NCBI GenBank assembly: GCA_039000985.1
Contig: JAWBMD010000002.1
Coordinates: forward strand, 33,578-97,577
Reading direction: 5' to 3'
Source: Candidatus Aenigmatarchaeota archaeon
GTDB lineage: Archaea; Aenigmatarchaeota; Aenigmatarchaeia; CG10238-14; SpSt-28
DNA length: 64,000 nt
Shown piece after piece: positions 3,001-53,278 of this stretch (the first letter of the stretch is position 1; each line of letters starts with the position of its first letter). A model generated the notes under the pieces. It ran no database searches. It was not told the DNA's origin and saw nothing but the letters and a program-made list of their open reading frames with translations. The position numbers and the translations under genes are program-made.

Positions 3001-6000
3001 TACCCCCCGGTATTACTTTACCAGCTGAAACTACGTTTGTAATAAATTCAATATAATTTGCTTCACTTACACCTTGTGGCGATGAAGATGCACCAATTCG
3101 CATAACAGTACCGGTTGAATTTCTTATTCCTATCATTCTATATGGAGAGAATTTTACTATCCACCCTTCTTCTTCTGAACCCAAAGGATAACCCGGTTCT
3201 GGGTCAACTACCACGTTAGCGAGACCATTTAAATCAATTATTCTAAAATTAGTCGGTTTCGTAAAACCTGGAGGGATAAAAATCTCTACATAATGAATTA
3301 AAGCACCTCTAGTTGACTCAACTGTACCTGTATAATCTGTACCACCAAGTTTTTGTATTATTCTTAAAGGTAAATTTTGTCCAGGTAATACAGTAGTTTC
3401 ATTAAGTTTTGATGATATCGTTGGGTTTTTTATTGTAGTACTAGCTGAAGTTAATGATACATGTTTTTGTATAACCGATCTGATTTCTCCTGTAGATGGA
3501 TCTTTCCACTCTACGGTTAAATAAAAGGTTTCTTCTCCTACATCATCACTAGGCCTGTATGGTATCTCAGCTCGAAAACAGGAAGATGTATTTAAATTAA
3601 CGTTATACCACCTTAAAACTGTTCCACCAGATTCATTAACATTTGGTTGAGGAACAGCTGGAGTACTTTCAGTAGAAAAGTATCTAAGTAATCCTGTTGT
3701 TTGATCTGTAATATTTACTGTTAAATTATAATCTCCATAATTACAAACATAAATTACTCTTATATCTCTGAAGCAATAGTAGCTTCCAGCACAATATGTA
3801 GAATGATCTATATTGTTATCGCAGCTAGTGCCATAAGAGCTTTCACAGTTTGAACCAAGCATTCGAGGAGTGGAAGAAAATAGTACTATATCTGTAGATG
3901 ACTCCGAATCATCAGTATATACATCAAAACTTTTTTCATGAGTTACAAGAGAGGATCCTAAAGAAATGTTAACAACAACTTTATATTTTACAGCTTCTAT
4001 ATTGTCTGGAATAAAAACTGTAAATGTAACTATAGAAGTATTCCAATTTAGTGCATTTAAAGTTCTTGGTATATTTACCCTTTTTGTCTTACCTTCTACA
4101 ACGAACCAATCTACTTCTTGATTGCTTCTAGTATCCAAAATTTTTATTGAAACGTCAGCAGTTTTATCAAAACTTGTATTATAATTAGCTAAAGGTATCA
4201 CTATCTTTGCTAAATGACCCCTCAAAACTTTATCAGTAGGCTCACCCGTTGGAGAAAATATCTTTATTGGTCTTATTAAGTTTATATCATATGGATATTT
4301 ACAATCAATAAGATAAACATATAAAATATTCGTTTCGAACATAGGGCCAGTTGTTCTTGTTTTTGGTAAAACTCTTATTTTATTTAAACCTAAAGGTGCA
4401 GATGGGGTAATAGTAATATTCCAAACTAAATAGCCATCCCACTCACACTTATCACCATTTGCTGTCGTTGGATTTCTCGTACATGTATCGCCAGTTCCAA
4501 TGCCACTTTGAGAAGTATGAGGATTAGTTTCTCCCGGAAATAGTTTCCAGCCATTTGTTCCTGAGCTTGTTATGGGTTGCCATGTTGGTGTTGCTACTTG
4601 AAGCTCCCAATCTTGTAAAATTCCAGCATCATCATCTGCTTCATCTGTTAGTACTAACCTTAGCGTATAATTCATATTATTTCTACACATAACGACTGCG
4701 TCTCTATAAATTTCAAAAGAATTATAGACTAAATGATGAACCGCATCCACAGCATATTGTAATGGATTTGTTTTGTAATATGGTAAAAATTTGAAGAAAT
4801 AATAAACAACATCAACAACTATAAAAGTCCATGGTTTTATTTCTTTAAATTCATAAGAATTGTTATAGAGAACATATATCGGACCAGCTAAATAAATTGC
4901 TGGCTTGACATCTGGGGTTGTAAAAGTATACCTAAGAACTTTTTCTTCACTTTCATTTAATTTGTTTAAATTCCAAATCAACCAAGTTTCGTTTTCTTTT
5001 TTTTCAATTCTTCCACCGTAAACAACAATTTCAAGAAAATCGTTTGGCAACTTTTCTATAATAGTTATGTTTTCTACATTAATATTAGATTTAACCTTTA
5101 TTTCAGCAAGATTTGGATGTCCTATATCTATTAAGGTTTTCATTTTTCTCTCTATTTCGAATTCTACAAAATTTCTAACTTCAAAAAAAGATTCATAGGT
5201 TGTGTTTAGATTTTGTCCAGTAGCAATTACTTTTATCGAATAGTTTCCTATCTCATCAGTTTGGTTATAGATTACAAACAAACTGCCATCTAACTCATCA
5301 TTAGCAAAATCGCCGTTATAACTATTATAAACCTTAATTTTTCCAGATGGTGATGTGACAACTAAATTGATTACAGCATCATAAGCTCTTTTTCCTTCCT
5401 CATTCAAAACACCAACAATTATTTTAACATCTTCTCCTGGCAAATAAATTGATTTTGGTGTATTAACAGTAACTAATCCAACTCCAAATTCTGTTTCTTC
5501 CTCTTCTAAGACTTCAACAACTTTTTCCAAAACTTTAAATGGTGTTCTTCCTTTTTCCACAAACTTTTCTTCAATTGTTTTGACTTTCAACTTATACAAA
5601 CCTGGTCTAAAACTTCTTCCAAAATCTAAATCAACAAAATATTTACCATCTTTTTCATAAAAATCAACCTCTTTTTCACTTCCTTCAAGATCTATCAAAT
5701 AAACCTTTACTTCATTATTTTCACTTAACTCTTCTTCTAATTCTATTTCAAATGTAGCTCTTTCTCCTAATCCATAGTTAAACTTTTCCTGTTTAATCTT
5801 TGGTTTAAGTCTCAAATGCTTTAAAACATCAAAACCAAAGATTTTGCTTGTATTTCCAAATTCTGTTTCAGCAAAAATTTCTGCCGTATAAGTTCCAGAA
5901 TGTTTTGGCAAGAACTCAAAACTGAACAAAAAGCTACCATCAGTTGATGCTTTATCTTGAAATATTATTTCCCCTTTAGGGTCTTTTATTGCAACAGAAA

Positions 6001-10951: not shown

Positions 10952-12615
10952 ATGAAGATGAATATTGTAGCAACGGCTGTAAGTGTAGAAGAGCTTCTGA
11001 GAAGTAGGACAATATATTCTGTTCCTTTGTTTCAAAGAAATTATGCGTGGGGAGATAAAGAAATAAATGATTTTTTAGAAGATTTAGAAAGCGTCTATGA
11101 AAATAGAGAGGAAGGATATTTTTTTGGAACGATAGTCTTTGCACCACATGAAGAGAGAGAGATAAAATAAAAATTTTAGATGGGCAGCAAAGATTAGCTA
11201 CTATTTTACTCTTTCTTGCTGCTATGAGAGATGTTCTCAAATCGAGACCAAAAGAAGAAGATAATAAAAGAGCGGAAGCAATAAATGAGTTGATTTATTC
11301 GACTGATCCTATTACACTATCTAAAAAGATTAAGATAGAAATGAATAGGGAAGACAGAACATTTTTTGAAAGTATTATAATTCAAGGTCTTGTACCAGGA
11401 ATAAATCGCGAATCTCATAAACTCATCAAAAATGCATATGAAACATTTAAGGAGTACATTAGAAGAAAGATAGAAGATGATGAAAATTTTCCAAAGAGAG
11501 TTTTGGATATCATTCTAAGTAAATTTATTTTCATAAAAATAGAAGTTGGAAGTGATTTAAATGCGCATTTAATATTTGAGACGCTCAATGATAGGGGGCT
11601 TGAACTTAGTATTGCTGATCTTCTAAAAAATTATATTTTTTCTATTTCTGGACAATATCTAGATTACATAATAGTTAAATGGAAAGAAATGGTAGATAAT
11701 GTTGGAGAACATAATGTTAGTAAATTTTTAAGGCATTTTTGGTGTTCATCAAAAGAGTTAATAAGAAAGGAAGATGTTTATAAAAAAATAAAGAATGTTA
11801 TAAGAAGTTCAGAAGAAGCTAAAAAATTTATAGAAGAACTCTGTGAAGAGGGGCTTGTCTACACTAATCTTGTTAATCCTGATCATCAATTTTGGAGTGA
11901 TAGGGAAGTTGAAGATCTTCTAAATGAGCTTAATATATTAGGAGTAGAGCAGGTTCTTATAATTTTATTGTCCCTTTACAAAAGATTTTTTAAGACAGAG
12001 AAAGAAAATTTCAAAAAGTTGCTAAAAAACTTGATAAACTTTACATTTAGATATAGTACAATATGTAATCTTAACCCAAATAAAATGGAAAGGTTATACA
12101 GTGAAGTAGCAGTAAAACTTAGGAACAATATGTTAGGTGTTGAAGATGTTATAGAGAAACTTAAAGAGTTAGATCCAAATGATATGACTTTTATTCAATG
12201 TTTTTCGGAAAAAGACGTTAAGAATACTAAATTAGCTAAGTATATTTTAGTAAAATTGAATAACCATCTACTTATTAACATGGGTGAAAAAGAAAAAACT
12301 ACGAGTATTAGTAAGGTCAATCTTGAACATATAATTCCAAGGAAACCAGATAAGGAATGGGAAGAGTTCTTTCAAAAAAATAACATAGATCCAGAGAAAT
12401 GGAAACAAAAGCTTGGTAATATGACAATTTTGTTAAAAGAATATAATAGAAAAATCGCTAATAAGTACTTCACAAAAAAGAAAGAGATGTATAAGAAATC
12501 AACACTACCGATCAATCAAAAACTTAAAGAGTATGAACAATTTGGACCTAAGGAAATAATAGAAAGGCAACAAGTGATGGCAGAAATTGCAAAAAATATA
12601 TGGAAAGTTGGATAA
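10952..12615 (+). pseudogene. GmrSD-like type IV restriction enzyme (DUF262 N-terminal + DUF1524/His-Me finger C-terminal), interrupted by a -1 frameshift
   Basis: ORF 10952-11170 carries the DUF262 motif VPLFQRNYAW and stops at 11168-11170. The -1 frame continues IKILDGQQRLATILLFLAAMRDV... (DGQQR motif) into ORF 11224-12615. Its C-terminus has NLEHIIPRKP...LGNMTILLKEYNRKIANK, which is DUF1524/HNH-like. The frames meet in the A-rich tract gagataaaataaaaatttta. Confidence 0.75.
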
Positions 12616-12636
12616 TCTAACAAATTTTTATGTTTA

Positions 12637-13575
12637 TCACCATTTCATACTTTCTCCGAATTTACTTAATTTTTCACTTTTTTCAGGCTTTCTAAAAATG
12701 AATAAATGTTCATGTGTAATCAAATAAAAATCATATTTCCCTCTCCATTTTTCTCTTGTTGACTTCATTTTCCACTGAAGCTTAATTATGTCCTCGCGTA
12801 AAATAAAGCCTACCTTTAAGAAAACCTCCATTACTCTTGTTGCAATTGGAACAAAGTGTTTTCTTTTTCTGGTATCTCCAATAAGAATGGCGCAATGTTT
12901 TCCAGGTTTTAATACTCTATAACACTCTTTAGCAACTTTTTCCATTTCATTGATAAACTCATCAATATTTTTTACATTAGATATATCACCTTCAATTTTG
13001 TTTTTTGTAAACTTTACTATGTTAGCATAAGGTGGATGAGTAGCTATAAGGTCTATACTTTCATCTTGAACTAGATCTAAATTTCTTGCATCACCAACAT
13101 AAGTTTTTATTTCTGGATCATATTTGTACTTAAAATCCAATCTATTTCTTGTAACCATTATTGCATCAAGATTTATATCAACCCCTATACCTCTTCTGTT
13201 TAAGAGTTTGCATTCAACAAGTGTAGTTCCAGAACCCACCATTTGATCTAAAACTAAATCATTTTCCTTTGTAAATCTTAAAATCAAATTTCTTGGAATA
13301 TATGGAGACCAATTAGCCCTATAGTTTCCTTTATGAGTTGCCCATTCACCTCTTTCGGGAAAAGACCATACAGTAGTAGTCTCTAACTTAAATTCTTTTG
13401 GTTCATATTCATTTATTATGTGATTTTTCACCAATGGAACTTTAACATTTTCAATAACAACAAAATCATGAGTTTTTAAGAAATCGATATATTCTTCTTG
13501 AGTAATCTCTTTCATTCCCCCATAAGCTGGAGAAGTTACTACTGTTTTTTGATTTTTTGTAAGTTCAGTTTCCAT
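12637..13575 (-). CDS. SAM-dependent DNA methyltransferase (N4/N6 amino-MTase type)
   Basis: Motif I VLDQMVGSGTT...GIGVDIN, motif IV ATHPPY, then YRVLKPGKHCAILIG. The motif order I before IV differs from the usual beta-class N6_N4_Mtase order. Confidence 0.75.
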   Translation of the reverse strand: METELTKNQKTVVTSPAYGGMKEITQEEYIDFLKTHDFVVIENVKVPLVKNHIINEYEPKEFKLETTTVWSFPERGEWATHKGNYRANWSPYIPRNLILRFTKENDLVLDQMVGSGTTLVECKLLNRRGIGVDINLDAIMVTRNRLDFKYKYDPEIKTYVGDARNLDLVQDESIDLIATHPPYANIVKFTKNKIEGDISNVKNIDEFINEMEKVAKECYRVLKPGKHCAILIGDTRKRKHFVPIATRVMEVFLKVGFILREDIIKLQWKMKSTREKWRGKYDFYLITHEHLFIFRKPEKSEKLSKFGESMKW

Positions 13576-26715: not shown

Positions 26716-27649
26716 AATATTAGCAATAAACAATATTTGCATAAAAGTTAACGAGAAAAAAATTTTTCTCGATCCAAAAGTTTCAGAGTCATTTTCTTTT
26801 ATTTCACATGCACATGAAGATCATTTGCCAGAATTAATTATTAATGAACCTTATTGTACAGAGGAAACATTCGAATTAATAAAAGTTAAATATCCAAGCT
26901 TCAAAGCAAATATTGTTAAATTTAACAAAAAAATAAAACTTGATGATTTTTCTGTTGAGTTTTTAAGAGCTGGTCATATACTTGGTTCTTCCCAAATTTT
27001 CTTAGAGCTAGATGGTTTGTCAGTTCTTTATACTGGAGATATTAAAACAGTTGATGAATTAACAGCTGGAAAATATCAAACAAAAAATGCTGATACTTTA
27101 ATAATAGAATCAACTTACGGTTTACCTATTTTTAAGTTTCCATCATTAGAGGAAATAATTAATAGCTTAGAAAAAATTTTGAATGAAGAAAATGTGAATT
27201 TGCTTGGCTATCAACTTGGAAAAGCACAAGATATAATAAAAATTTTAAATCTTATGAGTTATGAACCATTTGTATCAAAATCAATAAAAGCTTATTGTGA
27301 AATCTATAAAAAGTTTGGAGTTGATTTGAAATATAGTGATGAACAAACAAACATTTCAGTTAGACCAGCATCATTAATTAAAAAATTTTCTGGCAGAAAA
27401 AATGCAATAATATTTACAGGATGGGCTTTAAGTAGAGAATTTGAAATAGCTGCTTTGCCATTTTCAGATCATTGTGACTTTTACCAGCTTTTAGATTACA
27501 TAATAGAAGTTAACCCAAAAAAAGTCTATGTTGTTCATGGCTTTGTTTATGAATTTTCAAGAGAAATAGAAAAAAACTTAGGAATAGAAACTATACCTTT
27601 TCCTTTCGATACTTTATCCCTATCCTCATTTTTTTCAAGAAAACAATAA
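26708..27649 (+). CDS. Metallo-beta-lactamase-fold / beta-CASP-like nuclease
   Basis: HxHxDH motif SHAHEDH, then GHILGS, IIESTYG and a late FSDHCD motif. Confidence 0.7.
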   Translation: MSEILAINNICIKVNEKKIFLDPKVSESFSFISHAHEDHLPELIINEPYCTEETFELIKVKYPSFKANIVKFNKKIKLDDFSVEFLRAGHILGSSQIFLELDGLSVLYTGDIKTVDELTAGKYQTKNADTLIIESTYGLPIFKFPSLEEIINSLEKILNEENVNLLGYQLGKAQDIIKILNLMSYEPFVSKSIKAYCEIYKKFGVDLKYSDEQTNISVRPASLIKKFSGRKNAIIFTGWALSREFEIAALPFSDHCDFYQLLDYIIEVNPKKVYVVHGFVYEFSREIEKNLGIETIPFPFDTLSLSSFFSRKQ

Positions 27650-30600
27650 ATGTTTTTGCTTTTAATGCTTCCCTTAGTAAATTATTCCTAATAATTGTTA
27701 GATCTTTAATTCTTCCTCTAACTTTTAATATTTCTGATTGATATTTTACCATTATATCATAGAAAGCTTTTTCAGATATTTTTCTTTTAAAGTATTGTTC
27801 CTCAGCGGATTTTCTTGCATTTATTAATTCTTTCTCTTTGCTTGTTAGTGAAATGATTTCTTTTGATAATTTTATGTATGGAACTATTACTTCAACTATT
27901 AAATATGTTGAAAAGAACAAAGCTATTGAAAATGCTATTATTAGGTATTTATAACTAAGCAACAAAAACATCCAATATTTTTTGTTAATTTCTTCCTCCA
28001 ATTCTTTTATTTCTTCGCTTAATTTTTTGTTATAATTAATTAAATCAAGTAAAGCATTATTTGCTATTGAATTTTTTGCATTAATTAAAACATTGTTCAT
28101 TTCATCTATACTTTTTGTTATAGGTACTCCAAAGTTTTTATATTCTTCATATATTTTTTTCAAATCTTTTAATTTTGATTCAAGTTCTTTTAAATCATTT
28201 ATCAAGCCATTTTCCTTTATCTCTATTACTATTGACTCCGAATCAAATGTTTCATCTGAAAATGCATAAAGTATTAGTTTGTATTCTCCTTCAGTTGAAT
28301 TTAAAAATGAATGAACAATAAAAGGTATGTCTCTTCTCTCTCCTGCTCCAAGCTCTATTGTTAAATTATCTTTTATTCCATAAATAGTGCAAGAAGTGCA
28401 ATCAAATAAATATTTAATTGTTAATTTAATAGATGTATAACCGTTGTTAGAAATAGTAGCTATTAAAGTTCTATTTGTTCCAGTTTCAATTAATGCTCTT
28501 GTTTCATTACCTTTAAATTGTATTGAAAATGTTATGTTACATTCTGGAGAAAAAGAACAATAATATGTTTGATTTGGTAAGCAATATTGATTGCAATCCA
28601 ATCTTTCAAAGTACATTTCATATGGCTTACATGGACTTATACCACAACCTTTTTTAATTTCTCTCCCACATTTACAGATTGGAATTTCCGTAGGTGCAGA
28701 AACTCCTGGAGAAGAAGATGGGGGTGGAGCAGGTTGTTGTTGTAAAATTATTGTTCTTAAATTAACAACATGCAAACCAGAATTATTAAAATAATCTGTT
28801 GAATTAATTGTGATATTAAAAGTAGTTCCATATGTATTTGGTGAATAGCATCTATCTATACAGCCATCAAAGCTATATGTATTTAAAGCTTCATTACTAC
28901 ATGCGTTGTAGTAAAATTCTGTTTCGTTATGCAAAACAAGCTCTGAATTTATATTATAACATAAAATATTAACTATAGCATCTTTAATTTCTTTATCTTC
29001 TCTATAATTAAAAATTTTAGCCCTTGGAAGACCTTCTGCACTTTTTATTGTCGTTTTCGGTTGCATTGTTAGCCCTTCAGATGGAACAATTACTTTTATT
29101 TTAAGCAAATTTGTTAACAAAAACAAAAGCGTGTTATTACCAATGTTCCCATACTTTTCTGCTGTTACATTTAATGAATAGCTTTGCAAAGTATAGGATG
29201 GATTTAAAAAGAATTCAGCAGTACCATTTTCACTTATAATATTTGTTTGATTTGTTATATTTCCTAATGAATCTATTAATAAAATTGTTATGTTAGAATT
29301 ACTAACATTAAATGAATTAACATCCCTAACAACAAAAATTATGCTCTCACCTTTGTTAAAAACATTAAATGGTGTTATGAATTCTATGCTATATTTATTA
29401 AAAGCTGTGAAATTACTTTCATCACTATTAACTGTATTAAATGATGAATTTAAATCAGTTGCAAAAATTCTTATTGAATAATTTCCTGTTTCGTTTATTT
29501 GTGTTGAAATATCATCTATTAAAAATTGAAATGCAAACAAATCATTTTCAATTCTTTTCATTGTTACATTTTTTTCAATACCACTTGGAAAAACTAGTGA
29601 AGCATTAACTTCTTTAACAAAAATATTATCAGTTATATTTGCAATTATTTTTAAGCTATCATTTAGATTTGACTTATTTGTTTTTAGTGAAAAGATTTCA
29701 AAGAAAAAATTATTTATTGTAGGTGGTTCTAAATCGAATGGATAAATTGTTATTGAAAAAATTTCAGAATTATTATTACCCATTGATGTATTTGAGGAAA
29801 CATTTAAGAATGTTAAAACAGATTTTTCTGGTTCTCCAAGCAAACTAGCTTTTATATTCCAATTAACACTCGAATAACCTTTCCAAAATATTTCATCAAT
29901 ATATTTAACAAAGCTATCTTCACTTTCTGTTATGTTAATATAGCTTTCGTTCTCGCTATTAAATCTAATTGTTAAATTTCTTAAATCGCCCTTATATGCG
30001 GTAATATTAACATAATATGTTTGATTTTGTCCGGATAGCATTACGGGGTCTGCTTTTATAGTAATAGATGGTATACCAAACTTTACAAAAAATGTTTGAT
30101 TTTTTACTATTATTGAATTGTTCATTAAAGTAACGATATTCGAAAAAACACTATAGTTACCACTTCTTGTAAAGTTAGTAAAATTGTAAGAAAATCTATA
30201 ACAATAACCTAATCTAGGCTCTGTAGCAAAAGCTCTAAATTCATGCAAAGCTACTCCATTTGAAATAGAAATGATAAATTTATATGTTTTAAATGGAGTA
30301 AATTTGTCAAATATTGTTGTTTTTAAAGAATTTGGTATTTGAATGTTTTTTTCAAATGTTTTTACTTGGTTATTTTCATCTATATAGCTTATATTTGCAT
30401 AGCTTGATGAAGAACCAAACCATAATATCTCTATTCTCCTTATTGGGAATATGCTTCTCAATGTTATGTTTATATTATCAATTGCATTAAATGTTGTCCA
30501 GCTCGTTTCATTATTGCTATCTATTGACAAATTTGCATTATTACCATTTAATGAATTAGCAAAAGCACCTTTTTCTAATGAAGCTACATTACCTGTTTCT

Positions 30601-33338
30601 ATTTCTATTCCACAATCTCTAACAGTTTTTACTTCAACTCTATTCGCAAAAAATGTTTCTATTCCAGAATCGAAAGCTTTTAATATTGTGAAATTAACAT
30701 TGCTTATTGTATTATTCCCAACTACATCAACAATTAAATTTGAATATTCGTCGATAAATGTTTGATTATTTTCAATTTTCATATCTAATGGAAATATAAC
30801 TTCAAAAGTTTCATCTATGCTAGTATTTTTAAAAAGAGAAAATAGCTCTACAATCATTCTGTTTAATCCTGAATTATTTGAAAAAGCAGACCAATTTTCA
30901 AAATATTTTGTACCATTTTTTATTGCAATATTTCTTTCGTGAAAGAAATTTTCATTTTTTGTTATATTTAAGTTTGTTTGGTCGAAAATAGTAAGATTAA
31001 AGCTTACATTCCAAATATCTCCGTCAAAAGATTCAGCTATTGTTGTTATGTTAAATGTTTGATTTGTTAATATATGGTAAAATGGTATATAAAAAGATAT
31101 TTTTGGATTACCAAAACTTACATTAAAAGGCTCTGTATCATTTTTTATAAAAGAATATACTGATGAAATGTTTAATCCTACAAAACCAATGTAAAAACCA
31201 CTTCTTTCTGGGGTAAAGTTTAAAGAAAATATATATCTATCATTAATAGTTTCTAAATAATCCATATTAATTGTAATTGTTGTTGGACTTAATGTATTGG
31301 TATCTGTAATATTTAAAAAGCTCGTAGTAAATTTAACTTCATTTATAAATGATGAATTGGAGTCCTTATATATCGAGGCATTTATGATTATGTATTTTCC
31401 ATATAAAATGCTTTTGTTGGATATACTAGTTTCAAAACCAATTATAGTAATTGAAAAATTCGTTGAATTAGATATTCCATTTGAAGGTATAGCTGTTACA
31501 TTAATTAAAACACCTCCAAAATCTATGCTTAATAAATTCCAGAAATTATCTATTGTATAAATTTCTCCATTAGATAAATTGAAAAGTTGATTATAAAAGT
31601 TATTTGAATTCAAAAATAGCTTGGAATAATTGCTACTATTCAAACTCACATTTACATTCCAAACATCTCCCTCAACAGCTTTAAAGCTAACATTAGAAAA
31701 AAATGATTGATTTATTAAAAGTTTATTTTTTGGAAAGTTGAGATTTATTTCTATTTTTCCAAAATCCACAAAAAATGTTGTTGTATTCGCTGCTGTTCTT
31801 GGATTAGCTTCAACCATTACTGAAACAAAGTAATTACCAGATGAATTTGGTATGTAATCTAGATAGTATTCATATAAATCATCTTCATATTTTTTGCTAA
31901 AGCTTAAATTATAATATTCTGTAACAAAAAGGCTTCCAGTAGAATTTACTTTAAGATAAGTTATTGTTGAATTAACAATTTTTATTTCACTCGCATTTGT
32001 TACATTAACAAAAATTCTTATTGGCTCTTTTACTTTTATGTTTGTTGTTTTATTTATTTTTGGCAAGGCTGTTAATTCTAAAAACTTTATCCATGTGCTT
32101 GATTCATTCTGTGAAGAAATAAGATTTTGTTTATAGTAAGTTGATGTATTTCCAAATGTTCTGCATTTTACTGTTATATTTTTAGCAACAGTGATTTTAA
32201 CTGGACGAGTAGCATATCCTGTTCCATTAGTTGTTTTGTTATTATCATCTACACTATAATCTACAATAAAATTAACTGGTTGATTTGGTAATGGTTCCGT
32301 TGATGTATTATCTGCAACTAAACAATCTACATTTACTGTTTCTTCCACATAAGCATATTTATCATATGGTATTATCTCTCTTACCTTAGGAAATGACCAA
32401 AGAGTTAAATTTAATTCAGGAAAAGTTGTGTTATATCCTCCAAATGAGTTATTCGCAAATATTGAAAAATTATAAATACCACCAATTTTATAAATTGGAT
32501 CTGAGCTATTAAAAATGTAATTTATCCAATAGTTATATAAAGGAATATTTAATATAATAGCATGGCTTTTATTTAATGATGTTATATCTCCATATGGTTG
32601 TTTAATGTAAAGAAATGAATGATTAACATCGGTTATCTGGAAAAGTGCTGAAATATTAGCATATTGACCTCTATCTATTTCATATGAAGATAAAGATAAA
32701 TTACTAAATGTTAAATTAAAATATTCAACAATTATAAAAATGTAATCTATTACAAGTGCAACCTTATTATCATCATTGTCATAACCCCTCCAAGATAAAG
32801 CAGCGTTTTTAATTTTATTCAAATGATCTAAATATCGAGTAACCTCGAAACTTTGAACAAATAAACTAGTGTTTGAAAAATTTCTACAAGAGGCTTGGCT
32901 TTCTGGTAATACTACATTGTAAGAAAAATATCCTGTATAATTATTTCCAATAAATAAATAGCATTTATCATTAATATTATCACCCAATGGTGTGCCTGAT
33001 AGATCACAAATACTACCACTTACCTTGCAATCATCAGATTTCATTTGTGCATAAACATTTTTCACATTTATCCAATAATGGATTGGATAATTGGAAAATG
33101 AAACATTTATTCTTCCATATTTTTCAACATTGTAATCAGTAATAGTAAGATATTCATAACTAGAGTCTTCATAGTTAATATTAGTAAGATAACAGTATGG
33201 TGATGGATTACTTGCTTCTATACATTCATAAATTTGAGTTGGTCTAATAGTTAAATTTGCAAATTGAGAGAAAGAAAAAGAAATTAACAAAAAAACTAAA
33301 GCAATCCAACAACCTCCTTTGGTACAAGCTCTTTCCAT
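27591..33338 (-). CDS. Giant (1,915 aa) type I membrane surface glycoprotein
   Basis: N-terminal signal-like CWIALVFLLISFSFSQFA. I counted about 29 NxS/T sequons in the first ~520 residues. It also has a discoidin/F5-8-type-C-like stretch (SIDSNNETSWTT...IRRIEILWFGSSSSYANISYIDENNQ), a Pro-rich linker QQQPAPPPSSSPGVSAP, a Cys-rich segment, a single C-terminal TM (LIIAFSIALFFSTYLIVEVIV) and a ~90-aa cytoplasmic tail. Confidence 0.85.
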   Translation of the reverse strand: MERACTKGGCWIALVFLLISFSFSQFANLTIRPTQIYECIEASNPSPYCYLTNINYEDSSYEYLTITDYNVEKYGRINVSFSNYPIHYWINVKNVYAQMKSDDCKVSGSICDLSGTPLGDNINDKCYLFIGNNYTGYFSYNVVLPESQASCRNFSNTSLFVQSFEVTRYLDHLNKIKNAALSWRGYDNDDNKVALVIDYIFIIVEYFNLTFSNLSLSSYEIDRGQYANISALFQITDVNHSFLYIKQPYGDITSLNKSHAIILNIPLYNYWINYIFNSSDPIYKIGGIYNFSIFANNSFGGYNTTFPELNLTLWSFPKVREIIPYDKYAYVEETVNVDCLVADNTSTEPLPNQPVNFIVDYSVDDNNKTTNGTGYATRPVKITVAKNITVKCRTFGNTSTYYKQNLISSQNESSTWIKFLELTALPKINKTTNIKVKEPIRIFVNVTNASEIKIVNSTITYLKVNSTGSLFVTEYYNLSFSKKYEDDLYEYYLDYIPNSSGNYFVSVMVEANPRTAANTTTFFVDFGKIEINLNFPKNKLLINQSFFSNVSFKAVEGDVWNVNVSLNSSNYSKLFLNSNNFYNQLFNLSNGEIYTIDNFWNLLSIDFGGVLINVTAIPSNGISNSTNFSITIIGFETSISNKSILYGKYIIINASIYKDSNSSFINEVKFTTSFLNITDTNTLSPTTITINMDYLETINDRYIFSLNFTPERSGFYIGFVGLNISSVYSFIKNDTEPFNVSFGNPKISFYIPFYHILTNQTFNITTIAESFDGDIWNVSFNLTIFDQTNLNITKNENFFHERNIAIKNGTKYFENWSAFSNNSGLNRMIVELFSLFKNTSIDETFEVIFPLDMKIENNQTFIDEYSNLIVDVVGNNTISNVNFTILKAFDSGIETFFANRVEVKTVRDCGIEIETGNVASLEKGAFANSLNGNNANLSIDSNNETSWTTFNAIDNINITLRSIFPIRRIEILWFGSSSSYANISYIDENNQVKTFEKNIQIPNSLKTTIFDKFTPFKTYKFIISISNGVALHEFRAFATEPRLGYCYRFSYNFTNFTRSGNYSVFSNIVTLMNNSIIVKNQTFFVKFGIPSITIKADPVMLSGQNQTYYVNITAYKGDLRNLTIRFNSENESYINITESEDSFVKYIDEIFWKGYSSVNWNIKASLLGEPEKSVLTFLNVSSNTSMGNNNSEIFSITIYPFDLEPPTINNFFFEIFSLKTNKSNLNDSLKIIANITDNIFVKEVNASLVFPSGIEKNVTMKRIENDLFAFQFLIDDISTQINETGNYSIRIFATDLNSSFNTVNSDESNFTAFNKYSIEFITPFNVFNKGESIIFVVRDVNSFNVSNSNITILLIDSLGNITNQTNIISENGTAEFFLNPSYTLQSYSLNVTAEKYGNIGNNTLLFLLTNLLKIKVIVPSEGLTMQPKTTIKSAEGLPRAKIFNYREDKEIKDAIVNILCYNINSELVLHNETEFYYNACSNEALNTYSFDGCIDRCYSPNTYGTTFNITINSTDYFNNSGLHVVNLRTIILQQQPAPPPSSSPGVSAPTEIPICKCGREIKKGCGISPCKPYEMYFERLDCNQYCLPNQTYYCSFSPECNITFSIQFKGNETRALIETGTNRTLIATISNNGYTSIKLTIKYLFDCTSCTIYGIKDNLTIELGAGERRDIPFIVHSFLNSTEGEYKLILYAFSDETFDSESIVIEIKENGLINDLKELESKLKDLKKIYEEYKNFGVPITKSIDEMNNVLINAKNSIANNALLDLINYNKKLSEEIKELEEEINKKYWMFLLLSYKYLIIAFSIALFFSTYLIVEVIVPYIKLSKEIISLTSKEKELINARKSAEEQYFKRKISEKAFYDIMVKYQSEILKVRGRIKDLTIIRNNLLREALKAKTFIVFLKKMRIGIKYRKEKV

Positions 33339-37819: not shown

Positions 37820-39100
37820 ATGCAAGCAGTTAAAGGAACAAGAGATTTTCTACCAGAAGAAATGATTTTAAGAGAAAAAATAATTGAAAATTTTAAATCA
37901 ACATTTGAGCTTTTTGGCTTCCAGCCAATTGAAACACCAGCAATAGAAGAATGGAATGTCTTAGCAAAAAAAGGAGGTGGGGGTGAAGATATTTTAAGTG
38001 AAGCCTTTAGCTTTGAAGATAAAGGTAAAAGAAAAGTTGGTTTAAGATATGATTTAACAGTTCCTTTAGCTAGAGTAATAGCAAGCAATCCCACACTACC
38101 TTTACCATTCAAAAGATATCAAATTGGTAAAGTATGGAGATATGGTGATGTAGCAAAAGGTAGGTTAAGAGAATTTTTACAATGCGATATAGATATCGTT
38201 GGTAGTGAAAGTATGTTAGCTGATGCAGAAGTTCTTGCTTGTGCAACTAAAGCATTGGAAAGCATAAATCTAAAAAATTTTTTTATAAGAATTAATAATA
38301 GAAAAATTTTAAGTGGAATCATAAGTTATGTTGGAATAAATGAAAATGTTTCACTAAATGTTATTAGAACTATTGACAAGCTTGATAAAATTGGTTTAAA
38401 TGGTGTAGAAAAAAAACTTAAAGAGTTAAAAATACAAGAAATCTTAGTTAAAAAAATTTTAGATTTCATTAAAATAGATGGCGAGCCAAAAGATGTTTTA
38501 AAGAAAGTTGAAGAAATAATAGGAAATTTTAAAAATTGTATTAGCGAAATGGAAGAATTATTCAATTACTTAAAAATGTTTAATATCTATGATAAAGTGA
38601 AATTTGATATTAGCTTAGCTAGAGGTCTAGATTATTATACAGGTCCTATATTTGAAATCCTTGCTGAGAAAAAAATAGGAAGTATTGCTGGTGGAGGAAG
38701 ATATGATAAATTAATTGCTTTATTTACCGGTAAAGATATCCCAGCTACAGGTATAAGTTTAGGGCTTGAAAGAATTTTAGAGTTAATTAATATAGAAGCA
38801 CCAAAAACAAAAGTAAAAGCTTATATTGTTGCAACAAGTGAAAAGCTTATTGAAAACGTTATAAAAATAGCTAATGAACTAAGAAAAAATAACATAGCTA
38901 CTGATTTTAACATTAGAAAAAGATCATTAGAAAAGCAATTGGAATATGCTGATTCTCTTCAAATTCCTTATGTTATTATAGTTGGAGAAAGAGAATTAAG
39001 AAATAATATTGTTAAAGTAAAAGATATGAAAGAAAGAAGGGAAATAGAAGTAAGAATAAACGAGCTTGTTAAATTCTTCTACCCAGCTCGAACGCTCTAA
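37820..39100 (+). CDS. hisS: Histidyl-tRNA synthetase
   Basis: MQAVKGTRDFLPEE start, class II motifs (RYGDVAKGRLREFLQCD, GGGRYD) and a C-terminal anticodon-binding domain. The last ~7 codons are read-through antisense to the permuted tRNA gene. Confidence 0.9.
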   Translation: MQAVKGTRDFLPEEMILREKIIENFKSTFELFGFQPIETPAIEEWNVLAKKGGGGEDILSEAFSFEDKGKRKVGLRYDLTVPLARVIASNPTLPLPFKRYQIGKVWRYGDVAKGRLREFLQCDIDIVGSESMLADAEVLACATKALESINLKNFFIRINNRKILSGIISYVGINENVSLNVIRTIDKLDKIGLNGVEKKLKELKIQEILVKKILDFIKIDGEPKDVLKKVEEIIGNFKNCISEMEELFNYLKMFNIYDKVKFDISLARGLDYYTGPIFEILAEKKIGSIAGGGRYDKLIALFTGKDIPATGISLGLERILELINIEAPKTKVKAYIVATSEKLIENVIKIANELRKNNIATDFNIRKRSLEKQLEYADSLQIPYVIIVGERELRNNIVKVKDMKERREIEVRINELVKFFYPARTL

Positions 39101-39180
39101 CCAGGCTGAGCTACTGGCCCATTGTGGGCCAGAAGGGATTCGAACCCTTGACCTTTCGGTTATCAGCTTCGTTGCTGGGT
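39081..39180 (-). tRNA. Circularly permuted tRNA-Ile (GAT) gene: leader, 3' half (nt 31-73), CAAT spacer, 5' half (nt 1-30), trailer
   Basis: Minus strand reads ACCCAGC-AACG-AAG-CUGAUAA-CCGAA-AGGUC-AAGGG-UUCGAAU-CCCUU-CUGGCCC-A-CAAU-GGGCCAG-UA-GCUC-AGCCUGGUUA-GAGC-GUUCG-A-GCUGGGU. Trailer GCUGGGU pairs with leader ACCCAGC (7 bp). CGUU/AACG forms the 4-bp central helix, flanked by 3-nt bulges CGA and AAG. Canonical cleavage and ligation joins G30 to G31 and yields a normal 75-nt cloverleaf with anticodon loop CUGAUAA. Confidence 0.8.
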
Positions 39181-39212
39181 AGATCTATAAAAAATTTTAA
39201 TTTATTTAAATA

Positions 39213-40124
39213 TTATTTGCTTTTAATTTTTTCAGCTATTTGGTCTATAACTTTTTGAACATCAATACCTTCAGCTAATCCAATACCAGATACTAAAGAA
39301 TTTGTTACACTTGAAAAATTAGCTGGCAAAATTATTTTTGAGTTCGGACTACTTCCTATTTTTTCCAGAGCTTTTAAATAAAGATAATTTATTGCATTTG
39401 GATTTAGTCTTTCTGCCGCATCTCCCAAAACCTCTATTAAAACTCTTTTTGCTTCTGCTTCGAATCTTGCAGCTAATGCCTCTTGCTCACTTGTTAATGG
39501 TTTTATTAAAGCATTTAGCACTTCTTCTGGTAATTTAATATTCTGTACTTGTATTGTAACAATGTTAACTCCCCATTGCTGTAAAGCAAAAACAACATTT
39601 TTTTCTAATTCTTTTCCTATTTCATCTATCATTGAAAATATTTCCCTCATTGCAAAGTTGCTCATTCCACTTCTTATACTTCCCATTAAATAATTAAAAA
39701 GAACATCTTCCAAAACAGTAACTTGTAAAACAGCTTTTTTAGGATCTGCTATTCCATAAAAAATTGCTACATTTGTATAAAGCGGTATATCATCCTTAGA
39801 ATAAACTTGTATGTTTTCAAGTACTTTACTTCTCGTTCTAATATCAATTCTTTTAAATTCTTGCTCTATAAAAGGAATAACAATGCTCCAACCAGGACCG
39901 GCTATTCTATTAAACTTGCCAAATCTATATATTATAGCTCTTTCTGTTTCTCCATAAGTTTTAACAAATGTGAAAAAGAATCCTATAATAAACAAAGTTA
40001 ACAGAAATATTGGCACAAATAATGAACCTATTATTTTGAATACAAAATTACCGAATATTAATGATAAAAGCAGTATAAAAGCAATCAGCCCTAAAAATCC
40101 AAATACAATCTTACCTATCTCCAT
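39213..40124 (-). CDS. SPFH/band-7 (stomatin/prohibitin-like) membrane protein
   Basis: ERAIIYRFGKFNRIAGPGWSIVIPFIE...IDIRT is SPFH domain sequence. The start is taken at MEIGKIVFGFLGL (ATG 40124), because the track ORF's 42-codon N-terminal extension is low-complexity. Confidence 0.8.
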   Translation of the reverse strand: MEIGKIVFGFLGLIAFILLLSLIFGNFVFKIIGSLFVPIFLLTLFIIGFFFTFVKTYGETERAIIYRFGKFNRIAGPGWSIVIPFIEQEFKRIDIRTRSKVLENIQVYSKDDIPLYTNVAIFYGIADPKKAVLQVTVLEDVLFNYLMGSIRSGMSNFAMREIFSMIDEIGKELEKNVVFALQQWGVNIVTIQVQNIKLPEEVLNALIKPLTSEQEALAARFEAEAKRVLIEVLGDAAERLNPNAINYLYLKALEKIGSSPNSKIILPANFSSVTNSLVSGIGLAEGIDVQKVIDQIAEKIKSK

Positions 40125-49254: not shown

Positions 49255-49365
49255 CGGGACGTAGCTCAACGGTAGAGCGGCCGGCTGTAGGTAGTGCATT
49301 GCATTATTCACAGTGGTCGCTCAGTAGAAACCGGTAGGTTGTGGGTTCGAATCCCACCGTCCCGA
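49255..49365 (+). tRNA. tRNA-Tyr (GTA) with 39-nt intron (49291-49329) at 37/38
   Basis: Acceptor CGGGACG/CGTCCCG gives the C1-G72 pair typical of archaeal tRNA-Tyr. The anticodon stem GCCGG/CCGGT encloses CTGTAG|intron|A. Confidence 0.85.
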
Positions 49366-53151: not shown

Positions 53152-53278
53152 GCAGGGGTCGCCAAGTCTGGCCAAAGGCGGCAGGCTTAAGAAGCAACTA
53201 ACCCATCATCTTAAGCTATGATAAATGAAGAAACCTGCTGGGTTAGTCCCTTCGTGGGTTCAAATCCCACCCCCTGCA
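53152..53278 (+). tRNA. tRNA-Leu (TAA), class II, with 41-nt intron (53192-53232) at 37/38
   Basis: Acceptor GCAGGGG/CCCCTGC, anticodon stem GCAGG/CCTGC enclosing CTTAAG|intron|A, long variable arm, T-arm GTGGG-TTCAAAT-CCCAC. The intron contains a second CTTAAG that can pair with the anticodon loop. Confidence 0.85.

Follow-up and report, generated by a model that had tools for sequence, protein, structure and literature searches.

Can a transfer RNA (tRNA) gene whose 3' half lies upstream of its own 5' half be a working gene? The question is raised by 100 nt on the minus strand (39180 to 39081) of a 64,000-nt stretch of DNA, in the following called the window, from contig JAWBMD010000002.1 (GCA_039000985.1), which belongs to a metagenome-assembled genome (MAG) of Candidatus Aenigmatarchaeota, a DPANN lineage. 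The window has a GC content of 28.8%, and the homologues of the two proteins encoded next to the locus, HisS and Band_7, are labelled Candidatus Aenigmatarchaeota in their source records. Judging from the sequence and its relatives, the locus is very probably a functional circularly permuted tRNA-Ile(GAU) gene of an Aenigmatarchaeota clade.

Reversed halves and the predicted splicing motif

The minus strand from 39180 to 39081 reads ACCCAGCAACGAA / GCTGATAACCGAAAGGTCAAGGGTTCGAATCCCTTCTGGCCCA / CAAT / GGGCCAGTAGCTCAGCCTGGTTAGAGCGTTCG / AGCTGGGT, exactly as quoted in the original prediction, which had placed the 3' half before the 5' half with CAAU between them. Together with its pairing flanks the element covers 106 nt (39183-39078), in the order leader, tRNA positions 31-73, CAAU, positions 1-30, trailer. 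The 3' half (39125-39167, 43 nt) is conserved in four lineages, carries the anticodon GAU at 39164-39162 and ends with the discriminator A73; CCA is not encoded. The spacer CAAU (39121-39124) bridges A73 and G1 and would be lost when the 5' and 3' ends are processed, and the 5' half follows at 39089-39120 (32 nt). The exact 100-mer was found in seven contigs (L001-L005, L009/L010) from three NCBI MAGs and four Logan assemblies, and the locus is thus no assembly chimera.

Standard tRNA finders were expected to miss such a gene, and this was borne out. ARAGORN reported three tRNAs in the window, none of them at the permuted locus, and gave no call for the halves in their native order. Rfam at the gathering threshold returned five tRNAs and the large subunit (LSU) rRNA in the window, and its tRNA model left the permuted locus unmatched at gathering as well as at E-value thresholds. 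When the 5' half was set before the 3' half, ARAGORN called a tRNA-Ile(gat) of 75 nt whose cloverleaf is perfect, as had been proposed. The rejoined tRNA has stems of 7/4/5/5 bp, an anticodon loop of 7 nt (CUGAUAA) and the universal residues U8, A14, G18G19, U33, U54U55C56 and A58. It also holds A73, C29-G41, C4-G69 and U12-A23, which we take to be the identity elements of E. coli tRNA-Ile. In 21 window genes AUU and AUC make up 5.5% of 10,317 codons, so that a tRNA-Ile(GAU) should be heavily used.

Leader and trailer can pair with each other in a bulge-helix-bulge (BHB) motif that consists of a 10-bp outer helix, a 4-bp central helix and two 3-nt bulges. The original prediction gave the outer helix 7 bp; the pairing held, and its length was corrected to 10 bp, between the leader strand UCUACCCAGC (39174-39183) and the trailer strand GCUGGGUAGA (39078-39087). 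In the central helix, AACG of the leader (39170-39173) pairs with C25-G26-U27-U28 of the tRNA itself (39094-39091), and the bulges are A-A-G31 on the leader side (39167-39169) and C29-G30-A on the trailer side (39088-39090). Such a 3-4-3 geometry is that of the strict hBHBh' motif, as opposed to the relaxed motifs (PMC3239211). Cuts after the second nucleotide of each bulge, predicted at 39168/39167 and 39089/39088, would free the 5' end of G31 and the 3' end of G30. Their union, GAGCGUUCG with GCUGAUAACC (also written GAGCGUUCG with GCUGAUAACCGAA), restores the UUCGG/CCGAA anticodon stem exactly.

The cut rule used by our BHB finder (in which a helix strand of 4 nt precedes a bulge of 3 nt and the cut falls behind the bulge's second nucleotide) also describes two other tRNA genes of the window. 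Applied to tRNA-Tyr(GUA), where the BHB is strict, it excises 49291-49329 and leaves a valid tRNA; applied to tRNA-Leu(UAA), with one mismatch in the central helix, it excises 53192-53232 and again leaves a valid tRNA. We estimated the role of chance with a strict search, which demanded a Watson-Crick outer helix of >=7 bp with >=4 G-C pairs and had shuffled windows as controls. The mean was 1.8 matches per shuffled window among ~2.7e7 position pairs tested, hence the chance that a BHB falls on the sole tRNA-restoring pair of cuts is ~1e-7. A looser scan, in which G-U pairs were allowed and no G-C pairs were required, gave 1,732 matches in the AT-rich window; it was uninformative and was superseded by the strict scan.

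The organism clearly uses BHB splicing at other genes, the BHB-dependent features elsewhere in the window being the two tRNA introns and an insert in the LSU rRNA with a LAGLIDADG open reading frame (ORF). The introns of tRNA-Tyr and tRNA-Leu imply that EndA and a ligase are present in this organism. The intron of tRNA-Tyr(GUA) (49255-49365, plus strand) is 39 nt long, that of tRNA-Leu(UAA) (53152-53278, plus strand) 41 nt, and both genes were missed by ARAGORN in its default mode and recovered by Rfam. The LSU rRNA (22115-26181, minus strand) measures 4,067 nt against a model of 2,987 positions, an excess of ~1.08 kb, and holds an ORF (22677-23468, minus strand) for a 263-aa LAGLIDADG homing endonuclease (PF14528, E = 9.6e-24). 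It very likely carries an archaeal rRNA intron, to judge from its length and the ORF; our BHB finder gave no convincing intron boundaries in this insert.

Conservation of the arrangement in related lineages

The comparison that the original prediction had proposed could be made with four related lineages, namely the window with its 99% strains, L006-L008, L040 and L095, between which the neighbouring proteins are 76-89% identical. The permuted order is common to all four. L006-L008 (GCA_038997565.1), with 89% identity in HisS, keep the layout, and their outer helix reads ACTTGGC/GCCAAGT, as against ACCCAGC/GCTGGGT in the window. L040 (Aenigmatarchaeota SKYB42, contig JANXEB010000117.1) was the sole further permuted copy when 185,579 species genomes were scanned with a degenerate pattern. 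L095 (JGI 3300020567), found via homologues of Band_7 (76% identical), supplies a fourth and complete version, in which the helix TCCTATCTAGC/GCTAGATAGGA has 11 bp and the spacer 7 nt. Moreover, two tRNA pairs have changed on both sides in L095, A6-U67 of the acceptor stem and A49-U65 of the T stem, each to G-C. The spacer reads CAAT in the window, TTAC in L006, TAAA in L040 and ATTTTAA in L095; as it differs in each lineage, it is free to vary.

When the four sequences were aligned on the BHB and tRNA structure, all 103 of 103 pair cells were standard and 28 of 28 modelled pairs were kept. Of the 28 pairs, eight had double compensatory changes: six in the leader/trailer helix, out of its ten pairs, one in the T stem and one in the acceptor stem. 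None of the ten leader/trailer pairs was broken in any lineage, and for the first pair of the central helix the window has A-U and the three other lineages G-U. In a control in which the partners were shifted by 1-3 columns, pairing fell to 21-56% with <=3 double-change pairs. Between lineages the exons differ at 1-5 of 75 positions (93-99% identity), the helix strands at 20-50% of theirs and the spacers almost throughout. Conserved exons, a compensated helix and a turned-over spacer indicate that selection acts on the mature tRNA as well as on leader/trailer pairing; the sequences of leader, trailer and spacer, as far as the alignment tells, are not themselves under selection.

The degenerate pattern CTGATAAN{12,14}GGTTCRAATCCN{11,31}GGGCNNNTAGCTCAG was run on species-genome, metagenome and viral contigs. 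In the species-genome contigs it matched 40 loci, with a permuted tRNA-Ile only at L040. The 43 loci in metagenome contigs contained no permuted tRNA, in a collection that is incomplete and missed L095, which fits the pattern; the three loci in viral contigs contained none either. The remaining matches were ordinary tandems of tRNA-Ile with Ala, Val, Met or Lys, or loci resembling permuted transfer-messenger RNA (tmRNA) genes. To the latter belong four alphaproteobacterial loci (L024, L032, L038 and, from a metagenome, L085), in which a T arm, CCA, a short spacer and a tRNA-like 5' end follow each other with full acceptor complementarity. ARAGORN calls no tRNA at these four loci, and by their sequence they look like the circularly permuted (two-piece) tmRNA genes of Alphaproteobacteria. 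We set aside L059 (Ga0247611_10003103) as uninformative. ARAGORN reports there a tRNA-Ile with an insert at 30-31; the gene, at ~4500-4640 on the minus strand, is tRNA-Ile(GAU)-like with a 43-nt insert between D arm and anticodon stem, its anticodon stem is poor, and it lies in a CCA-encoding array of bacterial type.

More distant relatives have no permuted gene at the locus. Among HisS relatives of <=61% identity (L011) synteny is lost and no tRNA is found at the locus; the Band_7 relatives L096 and L097 (75-76% identical) have no tRNA downstream. In L098 and L100 (Band_7 58% identical) the slot downstream of Band_7 is taken by a 5S rRNA and an intron-containing tRNA. No outgroup tRNA-Ile(GAU), for example one with an intron at 30/31, was recovered among the relatives sampled. 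Within this sample, then, the permuted arrangement does not extend beyond a narrow clade. The slot in L098 (6943-7260) and L100 (1356-1660) holds a 5S rRNA-like sequence and then a tRNA of ~100 nt, for which ARAGORN fits only Pro(agg) with an odd 8-nt insert; this may be another non-canonically interrupted tRNA.

Transcription, maturation and rival explanations

The permuted gene sits in a gap of 112 nt between a Band_7/SPFH gene (39213-40124, minus strand), which lies directly upstream on the same strand and is the syntenic anchor in all four lineages, and the convergent hisS for histidine--tRNA ligase (37820-39100, plus strand). The overlap with hisS on the opposite strand was described correctly: its last ~20-23 nt run into the trailer and the 5' half of the tRNA. 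A TATA-like box, TTTAAATA (39203-39210, minus strand), begins 27 nt before the leader helix and is a candidate archaeal promoter; L006, L040 and L095 have similar AT boxes at a distance of 20-30 nt from the leader, on its upstream side. The 70 nt before the 5' half, a region formed by the GC-rich 3' half, contain no TATA-like box, and a spacer of 4-7 nt leaves no room for a promoter between the halves. These features hint that the whole permuted gene might be a single transcription unit starting from the upstream box. A split, trans-spliced tRNA was rejected, the halves being 4-7 nt apart and the 5' half having no TATA-like box of its own. Scans for sigma-70 promoters and intrinsic terminators are inapplicable to archaea and were set aside.

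The convergent ORFs that end at the tRNA close with ...ARTL*, in hisS of the window (39078-39100) and of L006 (~1940-1961) as well as in an MFS transporter gene of L095 (1993-2016). This tail is the antisense reading, GCT CGA ACG CTC TAA, of a segment from D arm to anticodon stem. As the unrelated hisS and MFS ORFs share it, the tRNA sequence sets the C-terminus of the opposing gene. Two further observations in the window are unrelated to the tRNA, a 1,915-aa ORF with no Pfam hit on record (27591-33338, minus strand; also in L001 and L009) and a GmrSD-type restriction endonuclease gene adjoining a DNA methylase (11224-13575).

In the maturation that we propose, one transcript starting just upstream of 39183 would carry both halves. 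Leader and trailer would pair, AACG would pair with C25-U28, and the 3-4-3 BHB at 30/31 shown by sequence and covariation would form. EndA would cut both bulges after their second nucleotide, and a ligase of the RtcB type may link G30, through its 2',3'-cyclic phosphate, with the 5'-OH of G31. The product, if Cyanidioschyzon merolae is a guide, would be a 79-nt circle (82 nt in L095) that is closed over the spacer as ...CUGGCCCA-CAAU-GGGCCAG..., that is A73-CAAU-G1. RNase P, or another enzyme with its function, would next release the 5' end at G1, and a 3' nuclease would cut after A73. A CCA-adding enzyme would complete the 75-nt tRNA, a step that is needed because CCA is not encoded. Support for this reading also comes from the junction itself, since 30/31 is a proven endonuclease site in the split tRNA-Lys(CUU) (PMC3218864).

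Several points weigh against a functional permuted gene matured in this way. It is known from sequence alone, from an uncultivated organism represented by MAGs and Logan assemblies, and the covariation rests on four related sequences, one of which (L040) comes from a contig that ends inside the trailer and contributes no trailer pairs. The inner helix h' of the BHB has 2 bp (C32-G24, U33-A23). The BHB conformer of the window sequence has -35.8 to -37.5 kcal/mol and lies above the predicted energy minimum: a form with cloverleaf and outer helix has -38.1 kcal/mol, one in which CGAA of the leader pairs with U27-G30 has -37.9, and the rod-like structure of minimum free energy, the preference of RNAfold, has -51.3. 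RNAalifold, too, picks the CGAA/UUCG register over the BHB. Since the central helix takes C25-U28 of the tRNA, the D stem must open for the motif to form, which is expected of a junction placed inside a stem. The original prediction called the BHB canonical; the word holds for the 3-4-3 geometry only and applies neither to position 30/31 nor to stability. The promoter call is weak because AT-rich boxes are common in a genome of 29% GC. Finally, EndA, RtcB, RNase P, tRNase Z and the CCA-adding enzyme are not among the window ORFs scanned with Pfam, a set that excludes the left-most ~7 kb, short ORFs and a few longer ones (e.g. 21194-21715).

The locus might be non-functional debris of a decayed tandem duplication, with the 3' part of one tRNA-Ile copy preceding the 5' part of its neighbour. 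Such an arrangement could indeed plausibly have arisen by tandem duplication of an intron-containing gene, and short spacers between ordinary tandem tRNAs are common, the type to which nearly all of the 86 pattern matches belonged. However, two full copies were seen in no lineage, the break coincides exactly with a 3-4-3 BHB that restores a tRNA, six double compensatory changes keep leader and trailer paired, and the exons are strongly constrained. The conserved layout with its compensatory changes thus refutes the debris alternative raised in the original prediction, to which we give hardly any credence. A product consisting of the unprocessed RNA, a tRNA mimic acting as protein scaffold like Y RNA or YrlA, seems equally improbable. 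The sole Rfam match at the locus, in a local and sensitive scan, was to YrlA (RF02553; 37.4 bits, E = 1.5e-6), and it spans T arm, acceptor and D arm in their order at the locus, a shape that the precursor does have. The score is far under the gathering threshold of 69, though, and YrlA has no restorable anticodon arm, whereas here the anticodon loop and stem are intact and rejoin exactly, with the isoleucine identity elements named above all kept. YrlA genes usually adjoin rsr, and the window ORFs that were scanned with Pfam or had precomputed Pfam hits include no gene with a Ro60/Rsr (TROVE) domain.

The two remaining alternatives accept the gene and differ on its role or its processing. The permuted gene might work and yet be redundant, with a colinear tRNA-Ile(GAU) elsewhere in the genome doing most of the work. 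Our view of the genome is limited to the 64-kb window, which favours this possibility, and such a second gene is a further point against our main reading. None of the five other tRNA genes of the window is a tRNA-Ile, however, and DPANN genomes are small, with one gene per isoacceptor being usual. A redundant copy would be expected to decay, whereas the exons stayed nearly identical while spacers and helices turned over, and each stem change was compensated. We judge redundancy unlikely and incline to the permuted gene as the only tRNA-Ile(GAU) gene of this genome. Alternatively, the same gene might yield the same product with no circle, if the spacer were cut first and the annealed halves were then BHB-cut and ligated in the manner of a trans-spliced split tRNA. 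The linear precursor already contains, in folded form, the acceptor stem and T arm by which end processing recognises a tRNA, and in N. equitans and Staphylothermus the split tRNA-Lys(CUU), joined at 30/31, is made from two RNAs in this manner (PMC3218864). The circular intermediate assumed in the original prediction has been demonstrated in algae, not for archaeal permuted tRNAs, where a review of 2014 leaves it undecided (PMC3978253). On the other hand, the algae are the sole systems tested and show the circle, with BHB processing first (PMC3978253). The sequence favours neither order of steps. By analogy with the algae we regard maturation of the permuted tRNA-Ile through a circle as probable, and the order with the spacer cut first as rather unlikely.

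Relation to known systems and significance

Permuted tRNA genes are very rare. The review of 2014 lists 34, of which two are archaeal, with junctions at 20/21, 37/38, 50/51 and 59/60 and no tRNA-Ile among them (PMC3978253). The archaeal examples are the initiator Met (iMet) and Tyr tRNAs of Thermofilum pendens, which are joined at 59/60, have an extra 37/38 intron and encode CCA (PMC3218864). The precedent of T. pendens to which the original prediction pointed stands for the permuted order. The Aenigmatarchaeota gene likewise is archaeal, has its 3' part upstream of its 5' part on one strand and a BHB at their junction, may be served by a single promoter ahead of both, and is missed or cut short by standard tRNA finders; the spacers, 1 and 7 nt in T. 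pendens and 4-7 nt here, are also alike. The precedent does not extend to the junction, which lies in the T loop in T. pendens and in the anticodon stem here, nor to the canonical intron and the encoded CCA, neither of which is present in the gene described here. Moreover, T. pendens belongs to the Thermoproteota, while the tRNA-Ile gene belongs to DPANN Aenigmatarchaeota and is kept in at least four lineages with covariation. In view of their junction, intron and CCA, the T. pendens genes are analogues and not the same arrangement.

The permuted tRNA genes of C. merolae and green algae (Soma et al. 2007, reviewed in PMC3978253) share with the tRNA-Ile gene the leader/trailer BHB and the lack of an encoded CCA, and also the proposed succession of endonuclease and ligase, circle, RNase P plus tRNase Z, and CCA addition. 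They are eukaryotic nuclear genes with spacers of 5-74 nt, none is joined at 30/31, and their circle is experimentally shown, whereas that of the Aenigmatarchaeota gene is predicted. The junction at 30/31 is shared with the split tRNA-Lys(CUU), whose halves have 32 and 43 nt in N. equitans and 31 and 43 nt in Staphylothermus (PMC3218864). The half sizes here are those of N. equitans, also a DPANN archaeon, and in both systems the BHB is made from flanks and exon nucleotides. The split tRNA-Lys, however, comes from separate, distant genes with their own promoters, unlike the reversed halves in what is predicted to be one transcript.

Compared with the non-canonical introns of archaeal tRNAs (PMC3239211), the permuted gene is a topological permutation of a tRNA-Ile with an intron at 30/31, in which the leader/trailer helix takes the place of the intron stem. 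It shares the 3-4-3 geometry and the cut rule with the tRNA-Tyr intron of the window. Unlike in ordinary introns, the hairpin of the 'intron' is open, being formed by the transcript ends, and the ends of the tRNA are closed by the spacer. The precursor also resembles YrlA in combining a terminal stem with T arm, closed acceptor hairpin and D arm, and the Rfam match below threshold is explained by this likeness. The YrlA RNAs are bacterial and Rsr-associated and have no BHB.

We found no earlier report of a permuted tRNA that is a tRNA-Ile, is joined at 30/31 or comes from DPANN, in a literature search whose coverage did not include subscription journals. What is new is the phylum, the isoacceptor and a fifth class of junction; the mechanism is unchanged. 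As far as we found, this is also the first archaeal permuted tRNA for which conservation over several lineages and covariation indicate selective maintenance. We lean slightly towards the permuted gene being the sole source of tRNA-Ile(GAU) in the whole Aenigmatarchaeota clade, in which case ~5.5% of codons would depend on the cutting of a BHB that is made in part of nucleotides from the D stem and the anticodon stem, and on re-ligation, probably with circularisation. If this is true, it would be the first permuted tRNA in DPANN and the first permuted tRNA-Ile, with a fifth class of junction, and the position 30/31 that it shares with the split tRNA-Lys of Nanoarchaeum and Staphylothermus would suggest a recurrent site of tRNA gene disruption.

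Standard finders score such genomes as having no tRNA-Ile(GAU), which distorts inferences about completeness and decoding in DPANN MAGs. Incomplete tRNA sets in DPANN have been taken as a sign of unidentified disrupted tRNA genes (PMC5829648), and the permuted locus is a concrete example of the kind suspected there. N. equitans is an exception among archaea with regard to end maturation by RNase P and tRNase Z (PMC3978253). In the permuted transcript the 5' end of the tRNA is internal, so that a 5'-processing activity is needed, and the lineage, unlike N. equitans, is predicted to require one. The gene brings no new principle, and it is useful for tRNA biology and for the annotation of DPANN genomes. 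It also offers a natural substrate for the question of whether archaeal permuted pre-tRNAs mature through a circle.

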